Position numbers and translations under genes: made by a program
Notes under the pieces: generated by a model
Told to the model about the DNA's origin: nothing
Database searches by the model: none
The model's input: only the letters and a program-made list of their open reading frames with translations
In this document: positions 14,970-50,016 of the stretch, piece by piece
Numbering within the stretch: the stretch's first letter is position 1
How the letters are laid out: the number at the start of each line of letters is the position of its first letter
Origin: an uncultured Armatimonadetes bacterium
GTDB taxonomy: Bacteria > Armatimonadota > Hebobacteria > Hebobacterales > Hebobacteraceae
Direction: 5' to 3'
Length of the DNA stretch: 64,000 nt
NCBI GenBank assembly: GCA_963716175.1
Contig: OY970296.1
Location: forward strand, 768,001 to 832,000

Positions 14970-14989
14970 ACCCGTACTCCTATAATGCT

Positions 14990-15225
14990 GCAACTTGGAT
15001 ATCCGTACTGGTTTCACCAGTATGGAGTGGGTTATAGTCTCCGGGCCGGGGCGTCGGGCGCGAGGTCTTCATTTCAGTTACGGCGCGACCGAGAAGAGGA
15101 GAATGACCCCTCGGCGACCGGTCCGGAGCTTGGATTGCAACCTGCGGCACGACCGCGGAATTCAGGAGTCGAAGCGGGACCGGAGGCGACGAGGAGCTCC
15201 CGCGCTGGCGGCAGATCCATTGCCG
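14990..15225 (+). ncRNA. Putative bridge-RNA-like leader of IS110 copy 1
   Basis: About 250-nt noncoding leader after TATAAT; hairpin 15002-15026 and stem/internal-loop/stem 15118-15183. Confidence 0.6.
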
Positions 15226-15237
15226 AGGAGGTGGTGT

Positions 15238-16663
15238 ATGGCGGAAGCGAGGTTGTTGTGCGTGGGCATCGATGTCTCGTCGCGCTCCCTGGAGGTCGGC
15301 TTCTGCGATGGCAGCGGAGCGCCCATCGGCGGCGTGCAGTCCTTCCCCAACGACGCGACCGGCGCGGCCGCGCTCGGCGAGGCCGTGATGGTGATCGCAC
15401 GCGTGTGCGGTCGCGGCACCCAGGTGATGGCGGCGGTGGAGTCCACCGGCGAATATCATCGGGTGGCGGCGAAGGCGCTGCGGGCAGAGACGCGTCGGAC
15501 GATCCAGGTGCACGTGCTCAATCCCCGCGAGGTCAAGTGGTTCCGCAAGCTGGAGCTCAAGGACACCAAGACCGACCGGGTGGATGCCGAGCTGATCGCC
15601 CGATTCCTGGCGAAGATCCGCCCCCAGCCCCGCGCCCCCATGCCCGAGGGATTCGAAGCGCTCCAGGATGCCACTCGCACCCGGCGCCGCTGCGTGGAGG
15701 ATCGCACCTCGCTCAAGAATCGGCTCCACCGGCTGCTGCGCACTCACTTCCCCGGCTATCGGGAAACGCTGGGTGCCAAGTTCAGCGTCCGCACCCTGGT
15801 GGCGCTGGCCGCCTGCCCCTCGCCCCAGGAGCTGCTCCGGCGGGGTGAGGCTCGCCTGAGTGAGTTGCGCAACTCCGACGGCAAGCGTGTCGGAGCCGCC
15901 TTCGCCCGGAAACTGATCGCCCTGGCGAAAGCTGCCCCCGCGCCAACTGCCGATGATGGCGCGTCTCTCCATCCAGGACGCGGCCGTCCGCATCCTGCAA
16001 CTGAATCGTTTCCTTCACGGCATGGACGCAGCCGTCGCCCAGGAGCTGGAGCGGCTCTTCCCAGATACGGTTCTGGCTTCGGTGCCGGGCCTGGGCCCGG
16101 TCTCGGTGGCTTCCATCCTGGCCGAGACAGCCGACATCCGTCGCTTCCCGCACAAAGAGACTTTCGTGGGCTACTGTGGGCTCTATCCCATTGCCTGGGA
16201 GAGCGGAGACACCAAGCTGCGCTTCCGCATGACCCGCAAGGGCAACCGCATGCTGAAGATGACTCTGCTGGTGGCCTCGGCCGCCGCCCGCCAATACAAC
16301 CCGGCGATCCGCCACTTCTACGCCCGCCTGCGAGCCCGAGGCAAATCCAAGAAAGCAGCCGGAGGTGCCATCGCCCGAAAGATGGCTGAGATCGTCTGGG
16401 CCGTGCTCACCTTCAATCAACCTTGGTCGGAAGAGATCGCCCTGCGCGGAATCGCTCGGGGAGAAGAGATGGCCCAGACACCGAAGGGGGAGCGACGCCT
16501 CACTGGAGATGCCGCGGGTCAAGCCCCGATGCAATCGGGACGACCACTCAAGGCGGCGTCGAGGTCTCGCGCTCCCCAGCGTAATTCTACCATCAGCGCT
16601 GGGAAAAACAAGCCGCCACATCTCCAACTTACTCGCTATGCCAGAGGCACGATTACCCCTTGA
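15238..16663 (+). pseudogene. IS110 recombinase frameshifted by a 2-bp deletion near 15940
   Basis: GIDVS/VESTG/KTDRVDA DEDD residues and WESG serine; reads gcccccgcgccaac where copy 2 reads gcccccgcgcgccaac. Confidence 0.88.
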
Positions 16664-16927
16664 CATCAGTTATTGCATCTCCTCTCCCGCTCACGGTCTG
16701 TGCTCGACGAACAGCACCGGCCCCGGCCAGTTCACCTCCGCCGCGTGCTCCTCCGTGCTGGAGCAGAGATGGAAGGCGTTGTGCTCCCCAGAGACCCTAT
16801 CCGGGCACTCCTGGGCGGTTTCCTTCCTCGCTGAGTCGGGGCTGTCCTTGCCTGATGAGTGCCGTTTCGGGCTTCCTGCTTACTGCCGGATGCATGTCGC
16901 AGTGCCATCGGGCCCCATACCCGACAA

Positions 16928-46430: not shown

Positions 46431-47735
46431 TCACTCGACACGGACGGCCTCCTGCCCGGTGAAGGACTCCCACCGGGAGAGGATGACATCGCAGTATCTG
46501 GCATCCAGGTCGAAGCCGAAACAGCGCCGGCCAGTCCGTTCAGCGGCGATGATGGCGGTCCCCGATCCCAGGAAGGCGTCAACAACCAACTGCCCCAGTT
46601 CGGTGGCATTGGCGATGGTGCGTTCGATCAAGGGCACGGGTTTCATGGTAGGGTGCAGGTCGTTGGACAGGGGCTTATCGTGTTCCCACACCGTGCGCTC
46701 GTTGGTGGGGCCGTGCCAGCGCGGGGCCTGGCCTTGCTTGTGGGCGTAGAAGCAGGGCTCGTACCAGTGCTTGTACTGGGCGAACAGTGCGCCCGCGCCG
46801 TTGTTCTTCACCCACACCAGGAGGTTCCGTTCCTGCCAGCCAGTCTCAGCCATGCAGTCCAGCACATCCCGCAGATGCGAGCTCGCGAACCAGAGGTAGA
46901 GGGGCGCCTTGTCATCTGAGTGCTGATGGGCCAGACCCAGGCTGGCGGTGAGCAGGTGGCGATATTCGTCATCGGTGAGGTCGTCCCAGTAGGCGTCGCC
47001 TTCTTGTCCCTGGGCGCCTCGGCGCTTGGCCCCTATGCGCTCCTCCTGAGCAGCTCTTCCGCCGAGGTAGTTGATGGCGTAAGGTGGGTCCGTGATGATG
47101 GCGTGAGCAGTTTCGCCGGCCATCAACCGCACCCAATTCGCAGGGTCGGTGGCGTCACCGCACAGCAGCCGATGCCGGCCTAGCTGCCAGAGCTCTCCTG
47201 GCTGCACCCGCGTCGGCCCCTGCTGCCGCTCGGCCTCCGCCATTGCCCGCTCGGCGTCGAAGGTCTCCTCCTGGCCCTGCTTCTCCCCCGCCTCCAGCCG
47301 CAGCAGCAACTCATTGAGATCATCCTGCCCCCAGCCCGCGGCAGTGAGCTGATCCTGCGCCTCCAGGTCGCGAAGCAGGGTTGCCAGGGCAGCCTCATCA
47401 TCCTCGGCCAGATCGCTGGCGCGGTTGTCGATGGCGAGGAACGCCTCCGGGTAGGGGCCGTCGTAGACGTGGCAGGCGATCTCGGCCCAGCCTTCGGCCC
47501 GCGCCGCCTCCACCAGACCATGACCCGCGAGGATGGTGCCATCCGGTGTGATCACCACCGGCTTCTGCTGGCCATGGATGCGTAGCGACTCTCGCAGGAT
47601 GGCGAGCTGGTGCTCTGGATGGCGGCGGTAGTTGCGCGGGTGGGGGAGCAAGCTGCTGATGGCCCGCCTCTCAATGGTCAGGTGAAGGTCCGTGCTCGCG
47701 GCGCCTTCTCTCGTTTCGGCCTGCTGTGATGTCAT
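46431..47735 (-). CDS. ParB-like N-domain plus beta-class DNA methyltransferase (phage type)
   Basis: HPRNYRRH..ILAGHG..AA; ITDPPY, HPTMKP, DAFLGSGT. Confidence 0.92.
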   Translation of the reverse strand: MTSQQAETREGAASTDLHLTIERRAISSLLPHPRNYRRHPEHQLAILRESLRIHGQQKPVVITPDGTILAGHGLVEAARAEGWAEIACHVYDGPYPEAFLAIDNRASDLAEDDEAALATLLRDLEAQDQLTAAGWGQDDLNELLLRLEAGEKQGQEETFDAERAMAEAERQQGPTRVQPGELWQLGRHRLLCGDATDPANWVRLMAGETAHAIITDPPYAINYLGGRAAQEERIGAKRRGAQGQEGDAYWDDLTDDEYRHLLTASLGLAHQHSDDKAPLYLWFASSHLRDVLDCMAETGWQERNLLVWVKNNGAGALFAQYKHWYEPCFYAHKQGQAPRWHGPTNERTVWEHDKPLSNDLHPTMKPVPLIERTIANATELGQLVVDAFLGSGTAIIAAERTGRRCFGFDLDARYCDVILSRWESFTGQEAVRVE

Positions 47736-47756
47736 CTCAGTGACTCCTATAATGCT

Positions 47757-47992
47757 GCAACTTGGATATCCGTACTGGTTTCACCAGTATGGAGTGGGTT
47801 ATAGTCTCCGGGCCGGGGCGTCGGGCGCGAGGTCTTCATTTCAGTTACGGCGCGACCGAGAAGAGGAGAATGACCCCTCGGCGACCGGTCCGGAGCTTGG
47901 ATTGCAACCTGCGGCACGACCGCGCAATTCAGGAGTCGAAGCGGGACCGGAGGCGACGAGGAGCTCCCGCGCTGGCGGCAGATCCATTGCCG
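47757..47992 (+). ncRNA. Putative bridge-RNA-like leader of IS110 copy 2
   Basis: Nearly identical structured leader to copy 1. Confidence 0.6.
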
Positions 47993-48004
47993 AGGAGGTG
48001 GTGT

Positions 48005-49432
48005 ATGGCGGAAGCGAGGTTGTTGTGCGTGGGCATCGATGTCTCGTCGCGCTCCCTGGAGGTCGGCTTCTGCGATGGCAGCGGAGCGCCCATCGGCGGC
48101 GTGCAGTCCTTCCCCAACGACGCGACCGGCGCGGCCGCGCTCGGCGAGGCCGTGATGGTGATCGCACGCGCGTGCGGTCGCGGCACCCAGGTGATGGCGG
48201 CGGTGGAGTCCACCGGCGAATATCATCGGGTGGCGGCGAAGGCGCTGCGGGCAGAGACGCGTCGGACGATCCAGGTGCACGTGCTCAATCCCCGCGAGGT
48301 CAAGTGGTTCCGCAAGCTGGAGCTCAAGGACACCAAGACCGACCGGGTGGATGCCGAGCTGATCGCCCGATTCCTGGCGAAGATCCGCCCCCAGCCCCGC
48401 GCCCCCATGCCCGAGGGATTCGAAGCGCTCCAGGATGCCACTCGCACCCGGCGCCGCTGCGTGGAGGATCGCACCTCGCTCAAGAATCGGCTCCACCGGC
48501 TGCTGCGCACTCACTTCCCCGGCTATCGGGAAACGCTGGGTGCCAAGTTCAGCGTCCGCACCCTGGTGGCGCTGGCCGCCTGCCCCTCGCCCCAGGAGCT
48601 GCTCCGGCGGGGTGAGGCTCGCCTGAGTGAGTTGCGCAACTCCGACGGCAAGCGTGTCGGAGCCGCCTTCGCCCGGAAACTGATCGCCCTGGCGAAAGCT
48701 GCCCCCGCGCGCCAACTGCCGATGATGGCGCGTCTCTCCATCCAGGACGCGGCCGTCCGCATCCTGCAACTGAATCGTTTCCTTCACGGCATGGACGCAG
48801 CCGTCGCCCAGGAGCTGGAGCGGCTCTTCCCAGATACGGTTCTGGCTTCGGTGCCGGGCCTGGGCCCGGTCTCGGTGGCTTCCATCCTGGCCGAGACAGC
48901 CGACATCCGTCGCTTCCCGCACAAAGAGACTTTCGTGGGCTACTGTGGGCTCTATCCCATTGCCTGGGAGAGCGGAGACACCAAGCTGCGCTTCCGCATG
49001 ACCCGCAAGGGCAACCGCATGCTGAAGATGACTCTGCTGGTGGCCTGGGCCGCCGCCCGCCAATACAACCCGGCGATCCGCCACTTCTACGCCCGCCTGC
49101 GAGCCCGAGGCAAATCCAAGAAAGCAGCCGGAGGTGCCATCGCCCGAAAGATGGCTGAGATCGTCTGGGCCGTGCTCACCTTCAATCAACCTTGGTCGGA
49201 AGAGATCGCCCTGCGCGGAATCGCTCGGGGAGAAGAGATGGCCCAGACACCGAAGGGGGAGCGACGCCTCACTGGAGATGCCGCGGGTCAAGCCCCGATG
49301 CAATCGGGACGACCACTCAAGGCGGCGTCGAGGTCTCGCGCTCCCCAGCGTAATTCTACCATCAGCGCTGGGAAAAACAAGCCGCCACATCTCCAACTTA
49401 CTCGCTATGCCAGAGGCACGATTACCCCTTGA
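48005..49432 (+). CDS. IS110-family DEDD recombinase/transposase (475 aa)
   Basis: GIDVS, VESTG, KTDRVDA, SVPGLG, WESG, KGNR; GAGGAGG RBS. Confidence 0.95.
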   Translation: MAEARLLCVGIDVSSRSLEVGFCDGSGAPIGGVQSFPNDATGAAALGEAVMVIARACGRGTQVMAAVESTGEYHRVAAKALRAETRRTIQVHVLNPREVKWFRKLELKDTKTDRVDAELIARFLAKIRPQPRAPMPEGFEALQDATRTRRRCVEDRTSLKNRLHRLLRTHFPGYRETLGAKFSVRTLVALAACPSPQELLRRGEARLSELRNSDGKRVGAAFARKLIALAKAAPARQLPMMARLSIQDAAVRILQLNRFLHGMDAAVAQELERLFPDTVLASVPGLGPVSVASILAETADIRRFPHKETFVGYCGLYPIAWESGDTKLRFRMTRKGNRMLKMTLLVAWAAARQYNPAIRHFYARLRARGKSKKAAGGAIARKMAEIVWAVLTFNQPWSEEIALRGIARGEEMAQTPKGERRLTGDAAGQAPMQSGRPLKAASRSRAPQRNSTISAGKNKPPHLQLTRYARGTITP

Positions 49433-49434
49433 CA

Positions 49435-50016
49435 TCAGTTATTGCATCTCCTCTCTCGAATCTGCGACGCGGCCGGCAGGCACGTCGGGCAGCGAAAGTC
49501 CAGGTCCTGGGCGGCGCACCGCAGCGCCAGCCCGGCGATCACCATCACATCGGCGCACTTCGGGCGGGGCGCGATGTAGGCGGGACGCTCCCCCTCCGGG
49601 TAGGAGAGCCATTCATGGGCGCAGCGGTAGAGGTCGACGTGCCGGTAGCCGCCCGAGATGTCAGCGTCCCACTTCGCACCGCGCACCGCGAGCAGCTCAT
49701 CCAGCACTGGCCGCAGCGCATTCACCGCCGCCCGGTAGGAGTGCACATCGGCCCAGACAGCGCAGTCCAACGCTCTCAGCAGGGCCCCGCGCAGCGGTTC
49801 GGCCGCCGGCGCAATGTGCATCTGCCGGACGTGCTCTGCGATCACCTGAGGGCCGGTAAGATCGAAGGCCTCGGCCTTCGGTCCATAGCTGCCGACCAGC
49901 GCCAGCATCAGGCAGACCCACTCCTTCACGCCAGGAAGCGCGCCGCCCCGCCGGCGCACTAGCTCGCGCACCTCCTGTCCCAGTGCCGCGATCTCGTGCT
50001 GCAGATCACTGCGCAC
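49435..50016 (-). CDS. Hypothetical protein, paralog of 50006-50806
   Basis: Shared EIAAL..EVRELVR.RG..LP and APAAE.LR; last codons replaced by the IS110 end. Confidence 0.7.
   Translation of the reverse strand: MRSDLQHEIAALGQEVRELVRRRGGALPGVKEWVCLMLALVGSYGPKAEAFDLTGPQVIAEHVRQMHIAPAAEPLRGALLRALDCAVWADVHSYRAAVNALRPVLDELLAVRGAKWDADISGGYRHVDLYRCAHEWLSYPEGERPAYIAPRPKCADVMVIAGLALRCAAQDLDFRCPTCLPAASQIRERRCNN

Follow-up and report, generated by a model that had tools for sequence, protein, structure and literature searches.

The question raised by this locus is whether the non-coding left end of an insertion sequence of the IS110 family encodes an RNA that guides the element to its targets, and which features of the target DNA such an RNA would read. 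The window analysed is a stretch of 64,000 nucleotides (nt) of contig OY970296.1, from an uncultured Armatimonadetes bacterium. Four copies of the element are found in the host genome (4.56 Mb, one contig, 66% G+C), two of them within the window. An earlier note, made from the letters of the window alone, had read the left end as a leader of the bridge-RNA type known from IS621. This reading is backed by 28 homologous leaders: their stems covary, and four predicted guides and both handshake positions follow the flanks and ends of the elements that carry them. The element is thus very probably an IS110-family insertion sequence working like IS621. Its target is the translation start region of host genes.

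The element and its relatives

The copy described here (copy 2) is 1700 nt long and occupies positions 47748-49447 of the window (forward strand). CTCC is found on each side (47744-47747 and 49448-49451). The span given in the earlier note, 47744..49452, has the correct start and an end one base past the second CTCC. Pairwise, the four genome copies differ at no more than five positions; identity begins exactly at CTCC and the sequences diverge immediately outside. At the left junction, a CT core (47744-47745) is followed by CC, bases 1-2 of the right half of the donor. At the right junction, CTCC is preceded by the left half of the donor, TCAGTTATTGCAT (49435-49447). The right end TTATTGCAT|CTCC, or near variants of it, is conserved in 29 loci. 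In three relatives (L058, L082 and L086), CT alone is common to both junctions, and the exchanged core is therefore taken to be CT. The CC that follows is simply present in donor and target alike.

The transposase (475 aa; 48005-49432, forward strand) is preceded by a Shine-Dalgarno sequence, GAGGAGG (47992-47998). It includes the two domains of IS110 RNA-guided transposases, PF01548 (5.3e-29) and PF02371 (4e-20), both past the curated Pfam cut-offs, and scores 226 bits (cut-off 140) against NCBIfam NF033542, "IS110 family RNA-guided transposase". E68, D113, D116 and S323 are invariant in 26 relatives, and D12 is conserved in at least 90% of them. The four invariant residues align with E60, D102, D105 and S241 of IS621, which are the residues named in the structure paper (PMC11208158, excerpts); the HMMER alignment stops short of D12. 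The alignment with IS621 ends at residue 397 of 475, so that the C-terminal tail of roughly 70 aa reported in the earlier note is a real extension, of about 78 aa.

Conservation within this tail covers residues 419-431 (GERRLTGDAAG) and an SRSRAP motif. Over residues 432-475, differences among 10 close relatives are spread evenly over the three codon positions (538/487/542) and nonsynonymous differences outnumber synonymous ones (819 vs 150); amino-acid constraint is therefore not visible there. The reading frame of this part is nonetheless open as far as the -35 box described below.

Relatives were collected in three ways. A protein search gave homologues of 40-90% identity, nearly all of them metagenomic. 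A metagenome scan gave 35 loci encoding proteins 36-91% identical to the transposase. A scan of genome contigs with the single protein gave 16 relatives of 23-30% identity, nearly all from Treponema, which were not used. The leader alignment (A3) includes 28 leaders: that of the window and those of 27 of the 35 metagenome loci. The leader is absent from the locus in L055, L083 and L084, and truncated in L063 and L068. L061, nearly a duplicate of L060, was also left out, as were L072, whose leader (371 nt) carries an insertion, L080 (left end not located) and the genome loci L023 and L024. The transposase of L060 (coding sequence, CDS, from 901) ends after 170 codons, and the gene is probably a pseudogene.

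A promoter split between the two ends

As the earlier note had stated, joining the two ends with one CTCC between them gives TTGACA-N17-TATAAT, and both ends are read directly in the sequence. The -10 box TATAAT (47748-47753) consists of the opening bases of the left end. The -35 box TTGACA (49429-49434) includes the transposase stop codon TGA (49430-49432), an overlap that had also been pointed out. On both strands of the host genome, TTGACA occurs 1039 times and TATAAT 153 times; about 0.017 pairs with a 17-nt spacer are thus expected, so that a chance origin of the junction promoter is negligible. Elsewhere in this genome, 12 perfect TTGACA-N16-18-TATAAT sites are found (e.g. at 3346662 and 3307133) vs about 0.02 expected per spacing, so the host evidently uses this consensus. 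Among the 23 relatives for which both ends are available, 22 have the 17-nt spacer and a -10 box matching at least 5 of 6 positions (6/6 in 11, 5/6 in 11); the remaining one, L082, has AATAAT and an 18-nt spacer.

A promoter scan of the integrated form (47400-49800, both strands) gave no promoter-like site, and no outward-facing promoter was found in the left end by the same means. The integrated element would thus lack its own promoter. Once it is excised as a circle, the TTGACA of the right end and the TATAAT of the left end would lie 17 nt apart across the CT core. The resulting sigma-70-type promoter is predicted to drive a bridge RNA that extends roughly from 47760 to 47971 (about 210 nt), and then the transposase gene downstream. 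The position of the -10 box by itself suggests a transcription start near 47760. By analogy with the family, this promoter would fire, circles would form, and the transposase would bind the RNA and carry out guided recombination.

A conserved RNA structure in the leader

The non-coding left end, or leader, is 260 nt long. RNAalifold and a pair count on the 28 leaders gave 31 base pairs, paired in 95.8% of 859 cells. Both sides have changed in 22 of the 31 pairs. None of 500 shuffles was as good, and partners slid along the alignment were paired in 32-46% of cells.

The structure includes a 5' hairpin followed by two internal loops. The hairpin (11 bp; 47769-47793, i.e. 15002-15026 in copy 1, where the earlier note had placed it) folds in most of the 28 leaders despite their differing sequences. 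The target-binding loop (47831-47875) has a basal stem (47831-34/47872-75) and a distal hairpin (47847-47859); in each of these two helices, three of four pairs have changes on both sides. The donor-binding loop (47885-47950), which corresponds to the stem/internal-loop/stem of the earlier note and is supported by covariation, has its stems at 47885-98/47939-50 and a distal hairpin at 47911-47923. One of its pairs alternates between U-A (12 sequences) and C-G (12 sequences). Two helices enclose these loops, one around both (47819-24/47966-71) and one around the donor loop (47876-80/47957-61). Each is paired in 94-95% of cells and has changes on both sides in three pairs. All these features are on the forward strand.

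Published IS110 bridge RNAs are described as a 5' stem-loop and, after it, a pair of stem-loops with internal loops, the first variable and the second conserved (PMC11208160, excerpts). In the same description, a loop binds the bottom strand through its 5' side (8-9 nt) and the top strand through its 3' side (4-7 nt), and each guide includes the core. The leaders analysed here agree with this description in architecture and in guide lengths. Handshake guides are described as complementary to the non-cognate DNA (PMC11208158, excerpts).

Guides and handshake positions

The loop segments were compared with the flanks and ends of the element that carries them, and the matches with those of permuted pairs (10,000 permutations). 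The segments below are all on the forward strand. The right target guide, AGAGGAG (47862-47868), pairs with the top-strand CT-CCTCT of the right flank, and the target role given to this segment in the earlier note is thereby borne out. In 22 elements, the match is contiguous from the core over 7 nt (13 elements), 6 nt (four), 8 nt (three) or 5 nt (two). At the three variable positions, own pairs match in 58 of 66 cases vs 31.6±3.2 after permutation, and no permutation in 10,000 was as high. The left target guide region, CAUUUCAGUUAC (47837-47848), has the same sense as the left flank and would pair with its bottom strand. It matches the left flank of copy 2, CATCTCAGTGAC, at 10 of 12 positions. 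Across the family, in a register fixed on the core, 85 of 175 positions match (permuted 53.5±6.7).

On the donor side, the left donor guide AUUGCAACCU (47901-47910) matches the right end ATTGCAT-CT; the RNA has one base more than the DNA between ATTGCA and CT. Where the right end varies, as ATTACA in L081 and L082 or as ATTACTG in L086, the guide varies with it, and own pairs match at 134 of 154 positions vs 126.1±1.5 (1/10,000 as high). The right donor guide GCAAUUCAGGAG (47924-47935) pairs discontiguously with the top-strand CTCCT.. of the left end. It is near-constant, like the left end itself, and covaries with the variant left ends of L058 (CTCT), L082 (CTCCA) and L085 (CTTCT); own pairs match at 142 of 168 positions vs 136.2±0.64 (0/10,000 as high). 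Core bases are included in three of these guides: the right target and right donor guides both finish in AG, the left donor guide in CU.

Each 3' guide is followed directly by bases complementary to the non-cognate DNA. In the target loop (AA, 47869-47870), the first base pairs with the donor T at 49447. Of 22 elements, 19 have here the complement of the donor base left of the core (permuted 13.4±1.65; 20/10,000 as high), and all four donors with G at this position face C in the RNA. In the donor loop (47936-47937), the base after the right donor guide was compared with the target base left of the core: this base, next to the core, is complementary in 21 of 27 elements (permuted 13.3±1.9; 0/10,000 as high), and the match of the second base is not significant (8/27).

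The five short segments to which the earlier note had given possible guide roles are found at their places once 32767 is added to their copy-1 coordinates. Besides AGAGGAG, ATTGCA (47901-47906), read as a donor match, is borne out: it opens the left donor guide. AGGAGT (47931-47936), read as a target match, is so in its last base, which is a handshake base; the rest is the core-pairing end of the right donor guide. TCAGTTA (47841-47847) is not a donor guide, since its match to the right end is lost in L052 and L054 despite the same or nearly the same right end; it sits in the left target guide. TTATAG (47799) was rejected as a donor guide: it lies 5' of both loops, outside them, and is conserved just in the two closest subgroups.

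Taken together, these features point to the following mechanism. In the donor loop, the 5' side (AUUGCA..CU) would hold the right end of the circle and the 3' side (..CAGGAG) its left end, while the bases 3' of each 3' guide would act in a handshake-like manner. Insertion at CT|CC would then leave GGAG on both sides of the element.

Several observations weigh against this mechanism. No Rfam entry matched 47000-50000 at E≤1. The contigs assembled from the four best DNA runs, compared over 47600-49600, show no joint of either kind, circle junction or empty site; the loose contig ends from these runs are flanks of the other genome copies. Among the sequencing runs listed as containing this sequence, none is an RNA run. 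TTGACA is present in 23 of 23 relatives, a count that is ascertained, the right ends having been picked with a TTGAC[AG] pattern; the right end of L080, read without this pattern, has TTGACC. The permutation tests ignore relatedness between elements, and their tail counts thus overstate significance. Covariation of the donor guides depends on few variant elements, three per guide. The left target guide of the element ends in UUAC, without the core-pairing CU, and fits two of the four genome sites poorly (5/9). In the subgroup of the window, the match of this guide is anchored on CAT; there and in a subgroup with 417-aa proteins, its register shifts by 1-4 nt and CU is absent. Both window copies may also be defective (see below).

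That the leader is a 5' untranslated or regulatory region of the ordinary kind, CTCC a target-site duplication and the protein alone the agent of target choice would fit the CTCC found on both sides of all four copies, as well as the missing circle joint and Rfam match, but is scarcely credible, because the guide positions follow the flanks and ends of each element, the stems covary, and the junctions of L058, L082 and L086 share CT alone, as in a conservative exchange and not a 4-bp duplication.

Target choice at translation start signals

The gene targeted by copy 2 encodes a DNA methylase (Pfam PF01555; 46431-47735, reverse strand). The left part of the target includes its Shine-Dalgarno sequence GGAG (complement of 47744-47747) and its ATG (47735-47733). 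All four genome copies are found directly upstream of the GGAG of an open reading frame (ORF) of the opposite strand (180-434 aa), whose ATG is 6-8 nt away. In 14 of 25 relatives, an ATG is found 5-10 nt from the core and opens an ORF that is at least 47 aa long or runs off the locus. Because the genome copies and these 14 relatives adjoin gene starts, the target can be written CAT-N5-10-CT|CC-T(T/C), in which CAT-N5-10-CT|CC represents, on the opposite strand, a gene's Shine-Dalgarno sequence and start codon. IS900 inserts in an orientation-specific manner at CATG-N6-TCTCCTT next to a gene start (PMC8141618, excerpts); insertion of this kind is found at all four genome sites.

Five relatives of 65-67% identity (L057, L058, L059, L060 and L062) have a common 45-nt sequence in their left flanks, which consists of a hairpin followed by GGTGGGC..TA.CGCTCC. 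It resembles GAGTGGGTTATAGTCTCC of the leaders of the same elements; further out, the flanks are unrelated. This sequence could be a short repeat or a remnant of a leader. An ATG is found there in L058 only.

The register of the left target guide relative to the core varies by 0-4 nt across sites, and by at least 8 nt in L086. In elements whose targets are not gene starts, the register is fixed on the core and CU adjoins the hairpin. CU is found at the end of this guide in L057-L062, L075, L079, L081, L082 and L085. A variable register lies outside the geometry of IS621 and may correspond to bulges tolerated at imperfect natural sites.

The same variation, together with the poor fit at two of the four genome sites and the CAT common to all gene-start targets, could mean that the likeness of the left guide to the start-codon region reflects general features of gene starts or chance, the site being selected by the right guide and the core alone. 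This is improbable: with permutation of the guides restricted to gene-start flanks, own pairs still match, over the six bases that follow CAT, at 55 of 90 positions vs 30.8±4.9, and none of 10,000 permutations was as high. Individual elements match their flanks at 9 of 9 (L056) or 8 of 9 positions (L054), and those whose target is not a gene match at 6-8 of 9 in the core-fixed register.

An antisense reading frame spanning the element

A reading frame of 562 codons spans the whole element on the opposite strand (47747-49435, reverse). It opens with an ATG placed 12 nt inside the right end, in the complement of the -35 box and the T after it; this ATG is preceded in frame by GGAG|ATG CAA TAA. 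Bases 1-2 of the -10 box and the C next to them give, in complement, the stop codon TAG, which overlaps the left boundary. This stop codon lies 11 nt before the ATG of the methylase gene and overlaps the restored AGGAG.

The same layout is found in 13 of 23 relatives (window, L052, L054, L064, L065, L067, L069, L071 and L073-L077), with element lengths of 1682-1886 nt. It is interrupted in elements inserted at sites other than gene starts.

One account of the frame is that it is a functionless by-product of G+C-rich codon usage. Being codon-aligned with the transposase, the frame requires, opposite the CDS, just the absence of TTA, CTA and TCA, and 9.9% of the 975 long ORFs of the host genome are without these codons over 475 codons; the antisense product, moreover, has no protein-family match. 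This account is nevertheless unlikely. The frame is also open through the 260-nt leader and the right end in the 13 elements, and its extent is constant, from 9 nt inside the right end to the TAG at the left boundary. In 27 CDSs, TTA, CTA and TCA are absent from 19, one of which has a G+C content at third codon positions (GC3) of 0.71 (L077); 1-20 such codons are found in four, and six in each of L057, L058, L059 and L062, whose GC3 is 0.70-0.73 and whose targets are not gene starts. These patterns suggest that the antisense frame is kept open by selection, which could serve continued translation of the host gene or production of a second protein.

Mobility of the copies in the window

Recent activity is suggested by the four copies, which have hardly diverged (at most five positions). 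The copies of the window may themselves be inactive. Copy 1 (14977-16682, forward strand) has its transposase gene frameshifted by a 2-bp deletion (equivalent to 48706-48707). It also includes a C-to-G change in the right donor guide region (equivalent to 47925) and a C-to-T change (equivalent to 48171). Copy 2 has a unique G at 49047, which gives W348. C is found at this position (S348) in the other three copies and in contigs from runs X1-X3, and S348 is kept in at least 90% of 26 relatives. On this sequence evidence, copy 1 (frameshift) and copy 2 (S348W) are possibly both defective.

It is quite possible, if somewhat doubtful, that the design is real and the copies of the window are no longer self-mobile, any movement depending on copies elsewhere in the genome. 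The frameshift and the changed guide base of copy 1 and the W348 of copy 2 argue for it; against it stands the near-identity of the four copies, with the recent activity that it suggests.

Further IS110-family genes are found in the same genome (45070-46215, 124839-126047, 2848895-2850052 and others), with products 27-30% identical to the transposase of the element. Some of them contain in-frame TGA codons. At 1703-2716 of the window, a 102-nt unit is repeated in tandem (at least eight copies, 63-81% identity to the reference copy).

Relation to known elements

The closest design is that of IS621 (Durrant et al. 2024, PMC11208160; Hiraizumi et al. 2024, PMC11208158), as given in excerpts of both papers. 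Common features include a DEDD/Ser recombinase and a promoter at the junction of the right and left ends; an RNA, encoded in the left end, in which a 5' hairpin precedes a target loop that varies and a donor loop that is conserved; a CT core, included here in three of the four guides; a right target guide made up of the core and 5 nt; and handshake bases 3' of the 3' guides. The proteins are only distantly alike: residues 279-397 align (E 1e-15), as does, more weakly, an N-terminal stretch. The present transposase has the C-terminal extension in addition, and its leader is longer (260 nt vs an RNA of 177 nt in IS621). The two enclosing helices may be additional to the plan of the IS621 RNA. 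Unlike that of IS621, the left target guide of the present element is without the core-pairing CU and its register is variable. The example targets given for IS621 are REP elements (PMC11208160, excerpts), and the present target is a translation start region. The best-scoring relative of solved structure is the transposase of ISCro4 (PDB 9t56; E 3e-17), which has the same two domains; this likeness is one of protein alone.

For the target, the nearest counterpart is IS900 of Mycobacterium avium subsp. paratuberculosis. Its target motif, CATGNNNNNNTCTCCTT (PMC8141618, excerpts), is nearly that of the present element, CAT-N5-10-CTCC-T(T/C); the likeness drawn here is one of target and layout. 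An ORF of the complementary strand of IS900, hed, spans that element and depends on host expression signals (PMC8141618, excerpts, citing Doran et al. 1997). The present antisense frame resembles hed and has its own ATG inside the right end. Target class and antisense frame thus have a precedent in IS900. No paper tying IS900 to a bridge RNA was found in the literature searched, which omits most subscription journals and supplements. ISEc21, the seekRNA element of Siddiquee et al. 2024 (PMC11187229), is compared by description: unlike the present element, it targets sites inside transposase genes of the IS3 family. The bridge-RNA design being already known from IS621, the present element would be a further case of it, directed to the start codons and ribosome-binding sites of host genes.

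Significance

It is tentatively proposed, as a serious possibility, that the RNA of this clade is specialised for translation-initiation regions and that the element is built to let host expression through. The core and the right guide would read the complement of the Shine-Dalgarno sequence, and the start codon would be recognised by the conserved CAU of the left guide. Between the two, 5-10 nt of spacer would be tolerated, unlike the fixed register of IS621. The antisense frame would keep the host gene translated by coupling, or would yield a second protein of the hed type from host signals.

The design of IS621 is seen to extend to a distant clade from uncultured sediment bacteria, and the present element offers a natural case of it that has been worked through, all four guides being assigned along with both handshake positions. 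Its natural sites suggest that a left target guide may tolerate a variable distance to the core. Its layout is compact: promoter hexamers, transposase stop, donor guide sites, and antisense start and stop overlap. For the long-known preference of IS900-type elements for translation start signals, an explanation at the level of RNA may now be offered.

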